A stretch of DNA of 16,174 nt from Candidatus Hermodarchaeota archaeon (GCA_016839365.1 JAEOUH010000037.1:1-16174); one strand, 5' to 3'; shown: positions 125-12,251, counted from the first letter of the stretch. Translations and numbers: made by a program. Notes: a model not told the origin generated them from the letters alone.

Positions 125-1636
125 TTAATCATAACCCATAGCTTCTCGGCGTCCAGTAAGCACCCAAGGATTCGATCCATTTTTATTAGAACGACGGATT
201 GTCGGCATCTTCAGCGGTTCAGGCTGCATTTCGAGTAGTGCGGCAGTTATTGCGGCCTGCAACTCAGGAGTAAGCTTGCTTAAGGATTCTTGGTCTTTGC
301 GGTGCTCGAAGAATTCGAGGGCAGGCTGTGGGAAAAGGATGTAAGCGATGATGTCTTCGATATTCGAAGTGATGCCTTTGAGTTCAGCTCGTGCCTTGGG
401 AATTGCAGGTTCTAATAGGTCAGCTGGGCGACAAGTAATTGGCTCTTCGTCGCCGATCACAAGCTTCTGGATTGCTGGGTCAATGGGTGCCGGAGGGCGA
501 CCATAATAGCCACGGACATATTGCTTAACCTCCTCAGGGATTGTCTTATAACGTTCTCCAAGTAACACGTTGAGTGTTGCTTGTGTGCCGACAATCTGAC
601 TTGATGGGGTCACGAGAGGAGGGTATCCCATTTCTTTACGGACAATGGGAACTTCGTCCAGCACGTCTTGTAGGCGGTCTAAGGCGTTTTGTTCACGTAA
701 TTGGTTGACCAGATTCGACATCATTCCACCAGGGACTTGGAATTGCAAGACGTTTGTATCCACCCCCACCATGCCACATTCATATGCTTCATATTTCTCT
801 CGGACATCATGTATGTAAGTAGCGATTTCTGATAAGAGATCAAGATTGAGTTTCGAATCCCAAGGAGTTCCTTGAAGGACCGCTACCATAGTTTCTAATG
901 GTGGCTGGGATGTTGATTGTGCTAACGATGAGATAGCCGTATCAACAATATCGACGCCAGCCTTAATGGCTTCAAGATAGGTCATACTTGCCATCCCCGA
1001 AGTGTAATGAGAGTGCAATTGAATGGGGACACTAATTTCCTCTTTCAGACGGGTAACCAGTTCTCGGGCGATAAATGGGCTAAGGAGGCCCGCCATGTCC
1101 TTAATACATATTGAATCAGCGCCCATTTCTTCCAGATATCTGGTCTGCTCCACGAATGTTTCAACGTTATGAACTGGACTTATCGTGTAGCTAAAACTCA
1201 ACTGTGCGTGAGCTCCTGCCTTATGGATGGCTTTTAGGGCGGTTTGCATGTTCCTAGGGTCATTTAATGCGTCGAAGACCCGGAAGATATCGATTCCATT
1301 TGTAGCAGCGAGTTCAACGAATTTGCGAACCGTATCGTCGGGGTAATGACGGTATCCCACGATGTTTTGGCCCCGTAAAAGCATCTGAAGCTTCGTCTTC
1401 TTGATCGCGGCTCGGAGTTGTCGAAGCCGTTCCCACGGATTCTCCTTCAGAAATCGGAGAGGCGCGTCAAAGGTGGCTCCACCCCAAACTTCCATCGAGT
1501 TAAACCCGACCTGGTCCATTTTCTCAGCGATAGGCAGCATATCCTCGGTTCGCATTCGTGTAGCCAACAAGGATTGATGTGCATCACGAAAAGTGGTATC
1601 TGTAAATTTAATTGGCTTGCTAGAAGCGTACGACAC
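125..1636 (-). CDS. Pyruvate/oxaloacetate carboxyltransferase (transcarboxylase 5S / OadA / PycB-type catalytic domain) lacking a biotinyl domain
   Basis: Motifs DTTFRDAHQSLLATRM, EVWGGATFD, MLLRGQN, FRVFDALND, IKDMAG, LHSH, QVPGGM and GYPPLVTPSSQIVG. No AMKM biotin-attachment domain. Start placed at GTG 1636, 8 nt after GAGGTG (1650-1645); the ORF track uses TTG 1642. Confidence 0.93.
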   Translation of the reverse strand: MSYASSKPIKFTDTTFRDAHQSLLATRMRTEDMLPIAEKMDQVGFNSMEVWGGATFDAPLRFLKENPWERLRQLRAAIKKTKLQMLLRGQNIVGYRHYPDDTVRKFVELAATNGIDIFRVFDALNDPRNMQTALKAIHKAGAHAQLSFSYTISPVHNVETFVEQTRYLEEMGADSICIKDMAGLLSPFIARELVTRLKEEISVPIQLHSHYTSGMASMTYLEAIKAGVDIVDTAISSLAQSTSQPPLETMVAVLQGTPWDSKLNLDLLSEIATYIHDVREKYEAYECGMVGVDTNVLQFQVPGGMMSNLVNQLREQNALDRLQDVLDEVPIVRKEMGYPPLVTPSSQIVGTQATLNVLLGERYKTIPEEVKQYVRGYYGRPPAPIDPAIQKLVIGDEEPITCRPADLLEPAIPKARAELKGITSNIEDIIAYILFPQPALEFFEHRKDQESLSKLTPELQAAITAALLEMQPEPLKMPTIRRSNKNGSNPWVLTGRREAMGYD

Positions 1637-1672
1637 GCACAATACACCTCATAAACAGCGTCTTGGCGAGAT

Positions 1673-1722: not shown

Positions 1723-3282
1723 CTAAAGTGGGCAGTTACCATGCTTCTTTTTTGGTAATGCTTGTCGCTTGGTACGCAACATTTCTAATGCTGCAATCAC
1801 ACGAGGTCGAGTAACAGCAGGTTCTATAACTTCGTCGATGAAACCACGAACTGCCCCAGAATAGGGATTCGCAAACCTTTCTCTGTATTCTGCGATTCGT
1901 TTCGCCCGAGCAGCCTCTGGGTCCTTCGCCTTCTCAATTTCTCGTCGGAAAATGATGTTTGCTGCACCTTCCGGTCCCATGACCGCCATTTCCGTCGTTG
2001 GCCAGGCATACACCACGTCCGCGCGTAAATGCTTTGATCCCAACACCACATAAGCCCCGCCAATGGCCTTTCGAGTTATAACCGTGACTTTTGGCACAGT
2101 GGCCTCAGCATATGCAAAGAGGATTTTAGCACCGTGTCTAATGATACCACGGTGTTCCTGGTCGACTCCTGGGAGAAACCCAGGGACATCCATGAAAGTG
2201 AGCACTGGAATGTTGAATGCATCACAGAATCGGACAAATCGGGCACACTTATCTGACGCATTAATATCCAAGGTTCCCGCGAGATAATTGGGCTGGTTGG
2301 CAACAACGCCCACTGGATGACCATTCAATCGGATGAATCCTACAACCATATTCTGGGCAAAAAGCTCATGCACTTCTAGAAACTGATGATTATCGGCTAC
2401 GCTCAAAATCGCTTGCTTCATATTGTACGGCGTCGTTGTATCATCAGGAAGCAACTCGTTAAGTGTAGGATCCGTTCTTCGTGCATCATCGGCTGGCTCC
2501 ACTGATGGAGGGTCTTCGACATTATTCGAAGGTAAATAAGAAAGGAGTTCTCGGATGAGTTGCAGGCAGTGCTCTTCATTCTCTGCTGCAAACTGCGCGA
2601 CTCCGCTTTTCACGTTATGTGCCATTGCGCCTCCGAGTTCTTCAAACGAGATGACTTCTCCAGTGACCGACTTGATCACGTTGGGTCCTGTGATGAACAT
2701 GCGGCTAGTATTCTTCACCATGAGCGTAAAATCGGTGACCGCAGGACTATATACCGCCCCTCCAGCACAGGGTCCCATGATGGCACTTATTTGGGGAATC
2801 ACACCCGACGCAATTACGTTGCGATAAAAGATCTCTCCATACGCCCCTAGACTTGCCACGCCTTCTTGAATCCGTGCTCCACCAGAATCATTCAAACCGA
2901 TTACTGGTGCTCCTGCTTCCAGGGCTAGATCCATGATTTTGGTCACCTTTTCTCCAAACATCTCACCCAAGGCGCCGCCAAAAACCGTGAAATCCTGACT
3001 AAACACAAACACCAACCGACCGTCAATGGTGCCATACCCGGTCACCACGCCATCGCCGGGTATCTTCTGTTTATCCATCTTGAAATCCGTGCACCGGTGC
3101 TCTACCAGCGCATCGAACTCCATGAAACTGCCCGGGTCCAAGAGCCGGTCAATCCTTTCCCGTGCCGTCATTTTCCCAGCTTTGTGTTGCTTTTCAATCC
3201 GCTCCTTTCCACCACCAAGTGTGGCTTTTTTCAGGCGTTTTTGGAGTTCTTTCATCTTCTTGTTCATCACATCAGAAGGCAT
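1723..3282 (-). CDS. Acyl-CoA carboxyltransferase subunit (methylmalonyl-CoA carboxyltransferase 12S / propionyl-CoA carboxylase beta / MmdA family)
   Basis: Motifs [64 protein letters not shown] and C-terminal KKHGNCPL. Start moved to ATG 3282 (MPSDVMNKK) with GGAGAG 8 nt upstream. The ORF-track extension to 3372 runs over the promoter region. Confidence 0.95.
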
Positions 3283-3428: not shown

Positions 3429-4013
3429 ATGTCTAAAACATTAACCGGACTGGTCCAAGCTTTCATCGGCGAAAGCCAAGCCCGTAACAGATACAATATC
3501 TACGCAAAAATCGCGAGAAACGAAGGTTTTGAACAGATCTCTGAAATCTTCGATGTTACTGCTGATAATGAGCGGGTTCATGCCAAGAATTTTTGGCGCG
3601 CTGCCCAAGCAGTCATGAATCAAACTGGCAAACCCATGCCTGAAATCACCGTCGACGCCCTTGCTCCCCTCAAAGTCGGTACAACCGCTGACAATCTTAA
3701 AGCTGCTATCGAAGGTGAAACCCACGAGCACACCAAAATGTACCCTGAAATCGCGGACACCGCTGAAAAGGAAGGCTATATAGAAATCGCCAAACAAGTC
3801 CGTGCCATTGCCCACGCCGAAGTCCATCATGCTGATCGTTACACCGCCTTGCTCAAAGAAATCGAGGCTAAAACTGTCTTTAAGAAAACGAAACCCACCC
3901 GCTGGTTGTGCCGTGAGTGTGGTTACATCCACGAAGGCGACGAACCTCCAGAACAATGTCCTTCCTGTTTCCATGCATTCAAATACTTCCAAGTCCTCTG
4001 TGAAACCTACTAA
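3429..4013 (+). CDS. rbr: Rubrerythrin
   Basis: AFIGESQARNRY; di-iron motifs NERVHAK, GETHE and AEVHH; C-terminal rubredoxin-like WLCRECGY...CPSC. GAGGT RBS upstream. Confidence 0.97.
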   Translation: MSKTLTGLVQAFIGESQARNRYNIYAKIARNEGFEQISEIFDVTADNERVHAKNFWRAAQAVMNQTGKPMPEITVDALAPLKVGTTADNLKAAIEGETHEHTKMYPEIADTAEKEGYIEIAKQVRAIAHAEVHHADRYTALLKEIEAKTVFKKTKPTRWLCRECGYIHEGDEPPEQCPSCFHAFKYFQVLCETY

Positions 4014-4058: not shown

Positions 4059-5456
4059 CTAGTCCCATTCGGAAGGTGGCTCTTGTATTCGGCGTTTCTT
4101 GCCGGAGGCTTCCCATTCAGCCTGGGCTTCTTCTATTGTGTCCCGATAAGCTTTTGGTAGCCGACTTTGAAGTGAGAATCCGCTTTCTTCATCGAGGGCA
4201 TAGGAGAACATGAAGGTGCGATAGGCGGTGTTCAAGGGGCGGAAGATGAAATAGCTCGGAATTGCTGAGAAGATGACAAACACAATGGCGAAGATGATTC
4301 CAATCACTACGGACAAGAAGATATCACTAAAAATGACGATGCCCATGAGATAGCCGAAGAGAAATCCAATCACAATGAAACCAAGCGTTAATAGAGCTCC
4401 AAATAAACTGAACACCGAAGATACGCCGGTCTCGGAAATATACACATCCACAAGCCATTGCCAGGTTAACCGAGCCGATCGTTTGACTGAAGCCACCAGA
4501 CCCCGTTTCTCAATGATTATCGCCGGTAGGGTGAAATAGGTCAGAAAGTAGAATACCGCTCCAATAATCCGACTAGCAATGGCTCCCAGTATCGCAAACA
4601 CCCCTCCTTGACGTTGCCCCCCGCTTTGCGCGGTACTCTGCGCTACAGAAACGGCTGTTCGAACTGCAGCAAACCGAATGATGGTGCCCATAACTCCCCG
4701 AACCTCGTGAGAGGCTCCGGCAAGGTTTGGATCCTGATTTCGATACCAAGTATGGGCGATTGATACGTTGATTCCGTCAAAGATGTAGAAAATTGAGAAG
4801 TAGACGAACAAATAGGGAACTTGCACCAATATAGTCAACGCCCAAAAGATGAGAGACTCAGGGGGGATGCCAATGAGGGGGAGCCAAGTATACATGGCCC
4901 CAAGGGTAGCCATCATGAGAATGCCTGTAAGTAGACTGAACACAGCAGTAACCAGGGGAATAATGAACATCTGCTTTTCCTCAAGTAATAACTGCGCCGT
5001 AAATTCGACCAGTTTGCCAGCGCGTTCAATCTTCTGTCGTCGACGAAACCATATCCATAACTGAATTAGTCCAAAGACTGGAAAGATGAACCCAAACAAA
5101 CCAAAAGGTCCCAAGAACAGGAACATGGCAATTCCAATCACAAACATGAACACGGCTTGAAGCAGCCAAAGCACTCTCAACGTTCCAGCTGCTGCTCTTT
5201 TCATCAAATGAAGAACCAGATAGGCAAGCACTATTCCCAGAAGGATCAAAAACAGGAAAAACCCTGAAATCGCCGGTAAAAAGGTAACAAACCATGGAAA
5301 TGCAAGGAGAATGATCGAAATAATAATCGGAAGAAAAGGTGAAGCGATATAGAAGAGATTGTAGAAACCAAAGCTGTATAGAAGGATTATACCAATCACA
5401 AGGCCTAGAATAGGGCCACGGCCACCACTTGTTTCCTCATACTCGCGATATGACAT
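4059..5456 (-). CDS. Polytopic membrane protein resembling the choline transporter-like (CTL/SLC44/Pns1) and DUF6159 families
   Basis: 465 aa with roughly 10 hydrophobic segments. Segments RQKIERAGKLVEFTAQLL..P, IAHTWY, GASHEVRGVMGTI and FLTYFTLPAIIIEKRGLVASVKRSARL follow the CTL/DUF6159 layout as recalled. The gene is well supported; the family assignment is by eye. Confidence 0.7.
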   Translation of the reverse strand: MSYREYEETSGGRGPILGLVIGIILLYSFGFYNLFYIASPFLPIIISIILLAFPWFVTFLPAISGFFLFLILLGIVLAYLVLHLMKRAAAGTLRVLWLLQAVFMFVIGIAMFLFLGPFGLFGFIFPVFGLIQLWIWFRRRQKIERAGKLVEFTAQLLLEEKQMFIIPLVTAVFSLLTGILMMATLGAMYTWLPLIGIPPESLIFWALTILVQVPYLFVYFSIFYIFDGINVSIAHTWYRNQDPNLAGASHEVRGVMGTIIRFAAVRTAVSVAQSTAQSGGQRQGGVFAILGAIASRIIGAVFYFLTYFTLPAIIIEKRGLVASVKRSARLTWQWLVDVYISETGVSSVFSLFGALLTLGFIVIGFLFGYLMGIVIFSDIFLSVVIGIIFAIVFVIFSAIPSYFIFRPLNTAYRTFMFSYALDEESGFSLQSRLPKAYRDTIEEAQAEWEASGKKRRIQEPPSEWD

Positions 5457-6409: not shown

Positions 6410-6712
6410 ATGACGACTGTAGGTGAACCAGTGGCGTTGCCGCGAAGTGAAACCGAAAAAATCTGGGTGTCTCTTTCTGAATGGCAAGGCTTCCTAGGCA
6501 TAGATATTCGAGTTTATTATCAGGCTGGGGAAGCGAGTTGGCGTCCAACCAAGAAAGGAGTCCGCATTTCCTTGGAGCTGAAGGATCAGCTGATTGCGGC
6601 TATCGAGAAGGTGGCCGGGTATGCTGATGATGTAATGGGTGAATCTAGGGGTAAGCCGAAGCCACTTGCGGAGTCTAAAAAGGTAGACGAGGACGAGGGA
6701 GCCGATAAGTAG
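6410..6712 (+). CDS. PC4/p15 (Sub1/YdbC-like) ssDNA-binding transcriptional coactivator family protein
   Basis: IWVSLSEWQG..GIDIRVYY....WRPTKKGVRISL matches the PC4 signature (V..F.G...IDIR.YY...PxKKGI.L). Charged, low-complexity C-terminal tail. AGGTGA RBS. Confidence 0.88.
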   Translation: MTTVGEPVALPRSETEKIWVSLSEWQGFLGIDIRVYYQAGEASWRPTKKGVRISLELKDQLIAAIEKVAGYADDVMGESRGKPKPLAESKKVDEDEGADK

Positions 6713-7084: not shown

Positions 7085-7462
7085 ATGACTAAACTACTTC
7101 AAATCTACAAATGCAAAACCTGTGGAAATATCGTCGAAGTGCTACACGCTGGTGCGGGCTCATTAGTCTGCTGTGGCGCAGCCATGACCCTCATGGAGGA
7201 ACAAACAGCCGACTTCAAGACCGAGAAGCACGTACCAGTTGTGAAAGAAACCAAAGACGGCCTTCACATCGTTGTTGGTTCCACTCCTCACCCAATGGTC
7301 AATGAGCACTGGATTGAATGGATCCAGGTCGTCAAGGATGGTACAATTATGCGCCAATTCTTGGAACCTGGCCAGAAACCGGAAGCCAACTTCCCGATGA
7401 AAGGCAAGCCTGACATGGCACGTGAATACTGTAACATTCACCTGCTCTGGAAGACGAGTTAA
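7085..7462 (+). CDS. dfx: Desulfoferrodoxin (2Fe superoxide reductase)
   Basis: Centre I YKCKTCGNIVEV...LVCCG. Centre II EKHVP, HPM, HWIEWI and EYCNIH. Confidence 0.97.
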   Translation: MTKLLQIYKCKTCGNIVEVLHAGAGSLVCCGAAMTLMEEQTADFKTEKHVPVVKETKDGLHIVVGSTPHPMVNEHWIEWIQVVKDGTIMRQFLEPGQKPEANFPMKGKPDMAREYCNIHLLWKTS

Positions 7463-9336: not shown

Positions 9337-10581
9337 ATGCAACCCACTGAGGGTCGTGAGCAGGAAAATATGGGCGAGAAACCCCCATTAAATTCCAATC
9401 TTTTGATTATTTTTAGTACAACCCTCATTGCAGTCATGGGTGTTGCAAGTATAACTCCGGCGTTTCCTGCAATGAGTATTACTCTTAGTGTTCCCCCTGG
9501 CATGATCAGTCTTGTTATCATCGTATTCACACTCCCCGGAGTCATCCTTACCCCTTTTTTAGGGGTGGCTGCAGATCGATATGGTCGCAAACGAGTGTTG
9601 GCTCCCTCTCTGTTACTGTTCGGAGTCGCTGGATTTGCTTGTGCGTTTTCTGAACCCCTAGGGCTTCTATTGGGGGCATCGCCATTTTTCATGCTGCTGA
9701 TTCTTCGAGTCTTTCAAGGGGTTGGGGCAGCCTCTCTTGGTTCACTTAATGTCACAATCATTGGCGATTTGTACCACCGCCAGCAGCGCACACATGTGAT
9801 GGGTTACAATGTAAGTGTACAAAGCATTGCAACAGCCATTTATCCCACGCTCGGTGGATTCTTGGCGCTTTTCGCCTGGTATTTCCCCTTCTATCTCCCG
9901 TTGCTAGCCATCCCGGTTGGTGTGGCCGCACTAATCTGGCTTAGTGTGCCAAAAGCTGAATGTCTCCTAACCCTACGCGAATATTTCGGGCAAATCTGGC
10001 ATATTCTCAAAGATCGACAGGTAGCTGGTTTGTTCATTATAAGTACAGCAATTTTCGTCATGCTATATGGAGCTATTATCACCTACCTACCCTTTCTTCT
10101 AATCTCTGCGTTTTTGGTCGACTCATTCATTGCTGGGATTGTCGTGTCTTTCATATCGGTTACTTCAGCTTTTACAGCCTTCTTAGTAGGGAATCTGATT
10201 CGAAGGTACTCCATGAAGGGCTTGTTGATGGCTGCATTTCCCTTTCAGGCGTTTGGCTTGTTCCTCATTCCCTTCGCACCTCATCTACTGATTATCCTCA
10301 TTCCAGTTGGGTTGTTTGGAGTGGGCATGGGATTGGCTATACCCACGACCCAAAACCTCCTTGTGAATCTAGCCCCAATGGAGAACCGAGCGGCGGTCAT
10401 GTCGCTAAACGGACTTGTTCTTCGATTAGGACAAACATTAGGTCCTCTTATGATGGCGGTCGTTCTAAGCGCCTTGGCACTTCCTGGAGTCTATTTCATA
10501 GGAGCCTTGATTGCACTGGCACTCATCCCAGTAGTCTTTCTAACAGTACCATCCCTGAACCGGTCTATGAAAGAACGCTAG
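9337..10581 (+). CDS. MFS transporter (DHA1-like)
   Basis: MFS motif [13 protein letters not shown], motif B LRVFQGVG, and about 12 hydrophobic segments. Start uncertain (GTG 9322, ATG 9337 or ATG 9370). TTTTTA at 9305-9310 favours 9337 or later. The stop overlaps the mutase stop (CTAG 10578-10581). Confidence 0.92.
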
Positions 10582-12251
10582 AAGATTTGTGGGGCCTTGT
10601 ACTCACCAAAAACTGAGCGTAGACTATCGCATATCTCACCTAAGGTTGCATGGGCTTCAACTGCTACAAGGATGGGAGTGAAGAGATTATTCATATCCTC
10701 TGCAGCTACTTTGAGATTATTTAGTGCTGATTCTACCCTTGTTGCATCCCGGGATTGTTTAAGGGCTGCCAGTTTCTTGGCTTGCAGGTCCTCGACAAGC
10801 GGGTCAACCCTTAGGTAATCAATAGTGCGTTCCTCTTCAGGGATTTCAAATTGATTAACACCAACCACTACCCTTTCACCAGTTTCAATTTCGCGTTGAT
10901 AACGATAGGCACTGTCATGAATTTCGCGTTGAATGTAACCTGATTCAATGGCTCGCAGGACGCCACCCATTTTATCGATTTGTTGAAGGTACTTCTCAAC
11001 TCCCTCTTCAATCTCATTAGTAAGATTTTCCAAGAAATAGGATCCAGCGAACGGATCAATGGTGTTTGCAGCACCAGTTTCATGGGCAAGGATTTGTTGA
11101 GTGCGGAGTGCGATGGTTGCGGCTTTTTCAGTTGGGAGGGCAAGGGCTTCATCCATAGAGTTGGTGTGAAGAGATTGGGTTCCTCCCAGCACAGCAGCTA
11201 GCGCCTGCATCGTGACTCGTACAATGTTATTCTCTGGTTGTTGAGCAGTAAGACTACAACCAGCAGTTTGCGTATGAAAACGCAAGAGCCATGAACGCGA
11301 ATCCTTTGCATTATACCGTTCTCGCATAATCTTATACCACAATCGACGAGCAGCCCGGAATTTCGCAATCTCCTCGAATAGATCATTATGGGCTCCAAAG
11401 AAGAAGGAGAGCCGTGGGGCAAACTCATCGACCTGGAGCCCCGCATCAATGGCGGCCTGCACATAAGCTATGCCATTGGCAAATGTGAACGCTACTTCTT
11501 GGATGGCGGTACTACCCGCTTCACGGATATGGTAACCACTAATACTGATAGTATTCCACGAGGGCAGCTCTTCGCGACAATACGCGAAGGTATCAGTGAT
11601 TAATCGCATGGAAGGTTTAGGTGGGTAAATGTAAGTTCCACGGGCCACATATTCTTTGAGAATATCGTTTTGAATCGTACCACGCAAAACCTTAGGATTA
11701 ATCCCCTGTCTTTTGGCAATCACAATATACATCGCTAGTAAGACTGCTGCGGGGGCGTTGATTGTCATGCTTGTGCTGACCTTTTCGAGAGGAATATTCT
11801 GGAAGAGAATGCCCATGTCTTCAACAGATGGGATGGAGACGCCGCATTTGCCCACCTCACCTGCAGCCATTGGATGGTCTGCGTCATAACCGATCTGAGT
11901 TGGTAAATCAAAGGCTACACTGAGCCCGGTTTGTCCCTGCTTGAGGAGGTACTGGTAGCGTTCATTGGTCTGTTCAGCATTACCGAATCCTGAGTACATG
12001 CGCATGGTCCATAAGCGTCCCCGGTACATCGTGGGATACACACCACGAGTATATGGAGATTCACCAGGAAATCCTAAGTCCTGTTGATAGTCAAATTCAG
12101 GAAGGTCTGCTGGTGAATAAAGTCGTTTGACGGGTTTACTGGAGGTAGTCATAAACTGGTCAGCCCGTTCGGGGGCTGTTTTTAAATAAGGTGTAAGGAC
12201 ATTCACCTCCCAATCATCATACGCTTTCTTTACTCGCTTCTTTTTGGACAC
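10578..12251 (-). CDS. mcmA: Methylmalonyl-CoA mutase, large (substrate-binding) subunit of the split form
   Basis: [69 protein letters not shown] and [10 protein letters not shown]. No DxHxxG B12-binding domain. GGTGA RBS 6 nt before GTG. Confidence 0.95.

Follow-up and report, generated by a model that had tools for sequence, protein, structure and literature searches.

The DNA analysed here, referred to as the window, is a stretch of 16,174 nucleotides from Candidatus Hermodarchaeota archaeon (GCA_016839365.1 JAEOUH010000037.1:1-16174). Near its beginning the minus strand carries genes for a 12S-like acyl-CoA carboxyltransferase and a 5S-like pyruvate/oxaloacetate carboxyltransferase, followed by the first codons of a gene for a 1.3S-like biotin carrier. 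Our subject is the C-terminal tail of the 5S-like protein, a putative assembly adaptor of the enzyme that these genes encode.

The 5S-like protein, its tail and the operon

Translation of the minus strand over 125-1642 gives a frame of 505 codons (stop codon at 125-127), and residues are numbered here in this frame, counted from TTG 1642. The start is likely to be GTG 1636, which would give 503 amino acids, because an identical protein of that length is already on record. The protein has the domain make-up of the 5S type, an HMGL-like TIM barrel (residues 11-275) and a PYC_OADA domain (298-460), and no biotinyl domain was found in it by Pfam scan. NCBIfam and PDB comparisons group its body with the PycB/OadA/5S carboxyltransferases, in alignments that end at residues 450-460: NF006761 scores 770 bits, and PDB entry 1rqb (5S) is matched at E 4e-136 over residues 8-457. 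The model for transcarboxylase 5S, NF008984, scores 559 bits, below its equivalog cut-off of 827, and is aligned up to profile position 458 of 500. Judged from these profiles, we are dealing with a distant 5S-type protein, nearer to the PycB/OadA models. Those homologues that bear names belong to Asgard archaea (Promethearchaeota, Hodarchaeota, Thorarchaeota).

Past the catalytic body, the residues run QESLSK-LTPELQAAITAALLEMQ-PEPLKMPTIRRSNKNGSN-PWVLTGRREAMGYD (Table 1). An earlier note on this DNA had described the 5S-like protein as ending in a small-subunit-like peptide, at 125-274, and lacking a biotin domain. This description proved accurate: the last 49 residues of the frame are LTPELQAAITAALLEM-QPEPLKMPTIRRSNKNGS-NPWVLTGRREAMGYD-stop, exactly as quoted there, and Leu457 starts at base 274, the coordinates being exact. 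When the 5S monomer was modelled with AlphaFold2, residues 457-473 were helical, with a predicted local distance difference test score (pLDDT) of about 75, and the pLDDT was below 50 for approximately residues 477-505, including the terminal motif.

Table 1. Positions in the window of the three operon genes and of the parts of the 5S tail
Feature	Position	Strand	Basis or remark
5S-like pyruvate/oxaloacetate carboxyltransferase gene	125..1642	minus	stop codon included; without biotinyl domain
C-terminal tail, putative adaptor module, residues 451-505	128..292	minus	alignments; OAD_gamma proteins matched by HMMER and hhalign
Amphipathic helix LTPELQAAITAALLEMQ, residues 457-473, predicted plug of the carrier barrel	224..274	minus	AlphaFold2 helix; interface of the complex model
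Variable Pro/basic linker PEPLKMPTIRRSNKNGSN, residues 474-491, with conserved I-R-R	170..223	minus	least conserved stretch of the family alignment
Terminal motif PWVLTGRREAMGYD, residues 492-505; 12S is the candidate partner	128..169	minus	W493, G497 and R498 invariant across four Asgard families
12S-like acyl-CoA carboxyltransferase gene, 519 amino acids from ATG 3282	1723..3282	minus	Carboxyl_trans E 6e-201; TIGR01117 874 bits
Biotin-carrier gene (1.3S-like, 193 amino acids in full), first 33 codons	1..99	minus	contig ends here

The tail is conserved. A scan with the catalytic domain found a 5S orthologue in 94 of 400 Asgard genomes, and both tail motifs were present in all 28 further Asgard orthologues that were read, from four families; the earlier note would have taken lack of conservation in orthologues as a refutation. 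Beyond its own family, the 5S-like protein is 58-61% identical to its orthologues. Thirteen positions are invariant among 17 sequences of the family (L454, T458, P459, A463, A467, L469, P474, W493, G497, R498, R499, M502, G503) and the linker varies; A464 and the three terminal residues listed in Table 1 are invariant across the four families. The consensus of the Asgard families consists of a P-E-x-E-A-A-x-I-A-A-V-L-H helix and a terminal W-x-x-A-G-R-x-x-L-M. When the genome was translated in six frames (4.45 million residues), a loose pattern of the two motifs (A[AV][IVL]..., 15-60 residues, W..xGR) occurred at this locus only. In one Asgard family, f31, the 5S tails (loci L104, L106-L108, L110, L113-L115 and L117) are about 30 residues longer, with a longer linker that holds a second, internal W-x-x-x-G-R-E copy before the terminal motif; at the f31 loci the carrier gene does not lie directly downstream of 5S.

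The gene context is that of a transcarboxylase. The 12S gene is upstream of 5S, adjacent and co-oriented, and the carrier gene starts 25 nt downstream of the 5S stop codon. The full carrier gene is on another contig, C5, which overlaps the first 392 bases of the window with 6 mismatches. The window contig (C4, 1-392) and C5 (L001 1-400) thus overlap end to end, and the assembly is broken inside the 5S-carrier junction, probably owing to strain variation; one of the differences between the two contigs changes S453 to A. The carrier has the sole biotinyl domain found in the genome, and the gene order 12S-5S-carrier-mutase is kept in relatives. The second methylmalonyl-CoA mutase-like gene, which follows the carrier, is at L001:1239-2369 (+), the other mutase being at 10578-12251 of the window. 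Within the own family, 12S was found in 18 of 19 genomes, and OAD_beta and biotin carboxylase were each found in none of the 19; since these genomes are 72-91% complete, the absences rest on all 19 jointly and are not proven in any single one. A 12S-type carboxyltransferase and a free biotin carrier are thus encoded together without biotin carboxylase or pump, and these parts allow transcarboxylation as the only biotin chemistry. The lack of both biotin carboxylase and a pump subunit points to a soluble enzyme, and the best explanation of the 12S-5S-carrier operon, as read from sequence, would be a soluble methylmalonyl-CoA:pyruvate transcarboxylase.

Relatives of the tail

When 1.84 billion representative proteins were searched with the tail profile (HMMER), a protein of 127 amino acids, P0021, was matched at E 1.5e-4. 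It is a true member of OAD_gamma (PF04277 at E 1.5e-17), in which a membrane helix at the N-terminus is joined by a linker to EELVAVVAAAIA, with IRRR...AWSLAGRQETM after it. The other matches of this search, apart from the 5S fragment P0015, were long repetitive proteins aligned over numerous short segments, and we discounted them as effects of composition. When the tail was compared by hhalign with P0021 together with three relatives, the result was 95.4% (E 1.8e-8, 43 columns), and the tails of the other Asgard families likewise matched, at 92.5% (E 4.9e-7); by BLASTP, the tail matched an OAD_gamma protein at E 1e-7. Present in the tail are both the E-L-x-A-x-I-x-A-A-I helix and the extension I-R-R ... 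W-x-x-A-G-R-x-E-x-M that characterizes an MmdD-like subset; the terminal motif aligns with W-S-L-A-G-R-Q-E-x-M of MmdD-like proteins, and I-R-R of the linker with VRSIRR in the OadG-like proteins of bacteria. What is missing is the N-terminal transmembrane helix of the OadG type: the tail succeeds a soluble catalytic domain. On the strength of these alignments, the tail is homologous to the soluble C-terminal part of membrane subunits of the MmdD/OadG type.

Direct scans with Pfam OAD_gamma (cut-off 27 bits) gave no match at E<=10, neither for the tail alone nor for the full-length protein, and a six-frame scan of the genome with the same model at E<=1 did not match the tail either. The reason is that the homologous part lies mostly beyond the end of the PF04277 model, which stops at the helix (positions 74-75 of 76). 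A direct NCBIfam scan of the tail found nothing relevant.

A relationship to the epsilon subunit of acyl-CoA carboxylase (ACC) was considered and is not established, the matches being too weak. The best score of ACC_epsilon (PF13822) was 13.6 bits (E 0.11; cut-off 25 bits), obtained in two of 17 tails; both matches are collinear, with tail residues 5-48 on profile positions 8-47 of 60. None of 15 diverse tails was matched, nor was the tail in the genome scan with this model. Searches of PDB sequences with the tail and two tail profiles gave chance matches only, and neither the C-terminus of Propionibacterium 5S nor AccE5 is therefore detectably related to it. The earlier note had assigned the tail to an epsilon/delta/gamma type and suggested profile searches; the decarboxylase delta/gamma half of that assignment stands, through HMMER and hhalign matches to OAD_gamma proteins, and the ACC epsilon half does not, the Pfam models for both halves having remained under their cut-offs.

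In bacteria the module was followed in forty loci, mostly of Bacillota. A typical operon consists of a 12S-type carboxyltransferase, an OadG-like gene, a carrier beginning MKKYxITVNGxxYEVEVEE, and OAD_beta, and a tail-less 5S-like gene of about 470 amino acids is often added. The OadG-like proteins beside the 12S-type enzyme have VRSIRR, and most of them W..GR; the same module is present in about 20 of these bacterial proteins. The sole classical OadG that was read (locus L047, beside OadA) stops directly after the helix. In many Bacillota operons (L028-L067, e.g. L031:4427-9388 and L033:4409-9405), the 5S-like protein is both tail-less and biotin-less, and such operons could encode a pump supplied by two carboxyltransferases, or else a transcarboxylase bound to the membrane.

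A genome of Chthoniobacteraceae encodes a free, soluble homologue of the tail, 64 amino acids long (L064:5974-6165 (+)), between 12S and the carrier; a gene for an acetyl-CoA hydrolase/transferase comes next. Compared with the tail by hhalign, this protein gave 92% (E 5.9e-7, 47 columns). No OAD_beta or pump was found in this genome, and its 5S (L118:1441-2961 (+), about 7 kb away) ends in a carrier-type hairpin, KYVLNVDGARHEVVVEE. Among five bacterial genomes, the tail profile found the verrucomicrobial copy only, the profile being too insensitive to survey bacteria for fusions of 5S with the tail. As membrane-bound, free and 5S-fused copies were all seen, the module occurs in three forms.

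A predicted helix-carrier contact and its alternatives

The N-terminal half of the carrier offers a possible partner for the helix. AlphaFold2 predicted eight strands over carrier residues 2-87 (pLDDT about 80), followed by a disordered linker and the biotinyl domain. This half is predicted to resemble the sheet of a BT domain with no central helix. Of the BT-domain models applied to 12 carriers (PF18140, PF21139, PF21385), PCC_BT matched nine (best E 3e-4), BT_MCC_alpha seven (best E 6e-5) and ACCA_BT five, all below threshold. The PCC_BT match on the carrier begins at profile position 16; in the structure of propionyl-CoA carboxylase (PCC), the helix of the BT domain is N-terminal to its strands.

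We modelled carrier residues 1-95 together with the 55-residue tail. The complex reached an ipSAE of 0.62 (0.57, 0.62 and 0.63 in separate runs), and the best of three controls reached 0.01. That level of ipSAE was attained by 58 of 80 solved complexes and by two of 110 mismatched pairs, counts that hold only roughly here, custom shallow alignments (12 and 17 rows) having been used. The partner pLDDT was 52-54, and the runs shared at least 20% of contacts. In the interface, tail residues 7 and 9-23 (that is, 457 and 459-473) contact alternate residues of all eight strands, as would be the case for a helix inside a barrel. Thus, the tail helix most likely plugs into the biotin carrier, and not directly into 12S; the model supports such binding, and stops short of showing it.

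This arrangement agrees with the literature on OadG, GcdD and AccE5. For the OadG helix, binding to the OadA association domain was proposed, with formation of a PT-like domain, and deletion of the helix leads to loss of the alpha subunit; the association domain precedes the biotinyl domain and is not a carboxyltransferase (PMC7274780). In glutaconyl-CoA decarboxylase, the C-terminal region of GcdD and the N-terminus of GcdC were placed together in the linker (PMC7145394). In the case of AccE5, the N-terminal helix is in a barrel made by AccA3, and the C-terminal part is in the carboxyltransferase hexamer (PMC13612425).

A separate problem is the partner of the terminal motif. The motif holds three of the four residues that are invariant across the four Asgard families, and it is disordered and outside the confident carrier interface, so it should bind something else. 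By analogy, 12S would be the leading candidate, because the W..GR extension occurs in settings in which there is a 12S-type enzyme to be tethered, and because the corresponding part of AccE5 binds the carboxyltransferase hexamer.

The sequence of the tail, its conservation, its homology of the OadG type and its gene context are direct observations. The explanation that we favour for them as a whole, and hold to be fairly probable, is a soluble transcarboxylase in which the tail of 5S serves as a two-part assembly adaptor. The last 50 residues of 5S would constitute this adaptor, sharing ancestry with the cytoplasmic C-terminus of OadG, MmdD and GcdD, the membrane subunits of sodium-pump decarboxylases, but lacking the membrane helix and being fused to 5S. 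Helix 457-473 is predicted to insert into the barrel at the N-terminus of the separate carrier, an eight-stranded structure like that of a BT domain. Helix and barrel would then complete a domain of the BT/PT type split over two chains, and this split domain would tether the swinging biotinyl domain to 5S. The terminal P-W-x-L-x-G-R-R-E-x-M-G, carried on the flexible Pro/basic linker, may dock on a third surface, most likely the 12S core, and in this way all three subunits would be brought together.

The earlier note had the tail tethering 5S directly to the acyl-CoA carboxyltransferase, which is at odds with a helix modelled in the carrier barrel and not on 12S. On this view, the whole tail, including the helix, would dock on 12S and tether 5S without the carrier, in the manner of the AccE/PccE epsilon subunit on PccB. 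The view draws on the collinear ACC_epsilon match in the two tails, on the binding of the C-terminal part of AccE5 to the carboxyltransferase hexamer and on the adjacency and common orientation of the 12S and 5S genes. On the other hand, that match reached about half of its cut-off in bits and was not seen in the diverse tails, no related PDB chain was found by sequence with either tail profile, and in both precedents (PMC7274780, PMC13612425) the helix binds a barrel or sheet beside the biotinyl domain, not a carboxyltransferase; moreover, the complex model, whose controls were clean, has the helix inside the barrel of the carrier. We regard docking of the whole tail on 12S as unlikely. For the last 14 residues only, direct docking on 12S would be possible, by analogy with AccE5.

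It may also be asked whether the tail mainly drives self-association of 5S into a dimer of dimers, instead of linking different subunits. The isolated C-terminal tail of OadG, according to Balsera 2011 as cited in PMC7274780, binds alpha 1:2 and promotes alpha tetramers, and the second internal W..GRE copy in the f31 tails would suit a symmetric partner. However, the effect on OadA works via the association domain, which is missing from this 5S, the equivalent sheet being here on the carrier, and the low pLDDT of residues 477-505 means that the tail is not predicted to be packed on the 5S body; such a role for the tail is rather improbable. That the tail has no present role, being what a fusion with an OadG-like gene left behind after loss of the pump, is conceivable since bacterial operons pair OadG-like and 5S-like genes, but very hard to reconcile with residues invariant in both motifs across four Asgard families at the 5S identity given above while the linker drifts, or with the free soluble copy kept in the pump-less verrucomicrobial operon.

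Several points weigh against the two-part adaptor that we prefer. Every BT Pfam match on the carriers is below the curated cut-offs. When structures were searched with the carrier model, the biotinyl domain governed the result, the whole model being aligned to chains with BT and BCCP domains only at high root-mean-square deviation (5csa_B, Z 12.9; 3u9s_A, Z 12.5); this search does not settle the fold of the N-domain. The score of the complex is the model's own confidence, obtained with shallow custom alignments and a partner pLDDT that is only in the low fifties, and since intramolecular BT domains have been solved, the passing score may partly reflect likeness to them. Finally, phylogeny confounds the association of the W..GR extension with partners of the 12S type; nor is this association strict, W..GR being absent from the Lachnospiraceae operons.

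Known biotin enzymes and the meaning of the fusion

Elsewhere in the window there are birA, epimerase, mutase and cobO genes. A rubrerythrin (3429-4013 (+)), a PC4-like protein (6410-6712 (+), E 3.4e-11) and a desulfoferrodoxin (7085-7462 (+)) are encoded in the interval from the carboxyltransferase genes to birA; rubrerythrin and desulfoferrodoxin point to the oxygen-stress set of an anaerobe. A membrane protein of 465 amino acids encoded at 4059-5456 (-) resembles the choline transporter-like family of the eukaryotic type (PF04515, E 3.9e-6, 26.7 bits against a cut-off of 26.9).

The Asgard 5S tail is a variant of a known adaptor. With OadG, MmdD and GcdD (PF04277) it shares the helix, a short linker with I-R-R, the MmdD-like terminal W-x-L-A-G-R-x-E-x-M and collinear spacing, and also, in our proposal, the role of an assembly adaptor beside a biotin carrier. 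Unlike these subunits, which stand alone, it is a C-terminal extension of a 5S-type carboxyltransferase; it has no membrane helix, and the 19 genomes of its family yielded no beta pump. A single helix in or against an antiparallel sheet or barrel, as predicted here, is also the arrangement of the BT domain (propionyl-, methylcrotonyl- and acetyl-CoA carboxylases), of the PT domain (pyruvate carboxylase) and of the OadA association domain with the OadG helix. In all of them, and in the Asgard model, the sheet directly precedes the biotinyl domain and would hold the holoenzyme together. The difference from BT and PT domains is that the barrel (carrier 2-87) and the helix (5S 457-473) belong to two polypeptides, the donor of the helix being the catalytic subunit. 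The epsilon subunits AccE5 and PccE are likewise two-part adaptors with a flexible linker between a helix part and a carboxyltransferase-binding part (PMC13612425), but ACC epsilon is a free protein and the Asgard tail a fused one.

The transcarboxylase of Propionibacterium freudenreichii (12S, 5S and 1.3S; EC 2.1.3.1) has the same catalytic and carrier components and, like the Asgard system, no biotin carboxylase. The N-terminus of 1.3S is needed for its assembly, and the Asgard carrier begins with the same hairpin motif, K-x-K-(L/V)-T-(I/V)-N. The Propionibacterium carrier has one hairpin, whereas the Asgard carrier is predicted to have a full eight-stranded N-domain, and the C-termini of the two 5S proteins differ, the NF008984 alignment ending as described above.

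The earlier note had also contrasted the Asgard assembly with that of Propionibacterium, in which 1.3S bridges the subunits. A 1.3S-like carrier is encoded immediately after 5S, so the tail does not replace the carrier bridge, and the contrast itself may not hold because the Propionibacterium operon has a fourth small coding sequence where bacterial operons have the OadG-like gene. This operon comprises four coding sequences, the small one, PFREUD_18850, being annotated as the C-terminal part of 12S and lying between 12S and 1.3S (PMC2909200); in Swiss-Prot it corresponds to the C-terminal part of Q8GBW6. In view of this position, PFREUD_18850 may be a free counterpart of the Asgard tail.

In the literature searched we found neither a description of the fusion of 5S with such a tail nor a high-resolution structure of a transcarboxylase holoenzyme. 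The picture of how the three components are joined in the holoenzyme has rested on peptide-deletion work. A BT-type domain split between 5S (helix) and the carrier (barrel) would be a concrete contact that can be mutated, and it would link the assembly devices of pyruvate carboxylase (PT), acyl-CoA carboxylases (BT and epsilon) and sodium-pump decarboxylases (gamma/delta).

The enzyme also bears on the metabolism of these archaea. The propionate/methylmalonyl pathway, to which transcarboxylase belongs, has been used to infer Asgard metabolism, the subunits of the enzyme being named there methylmalonyl-CoA decarboxylase and pyruvate carboxylase (PMC7015854); these names sit against the genomes of the family studied here, in which neither pump nor biotin carboxylase was found.

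More tentatively, one may suppose that the helix-plus-W..GR adaptor and the barrel form a single mobile module for assembly, common to biotin enzymes of several subunits and occurring in membrane-anchored, free and 5S-fused forms, with the small Propionibacterium coding sequence and ACC epsilon perhaps among the free soluble ones. We think this possible rather than probable. If true, it would explain the architecture of transcarboxylase, and the Asgard enzyme would have come from a bacterial operon for a sodium-pump decarboxylase, of which the pump was lost and the soluble half of the anchor became fused to 5S.

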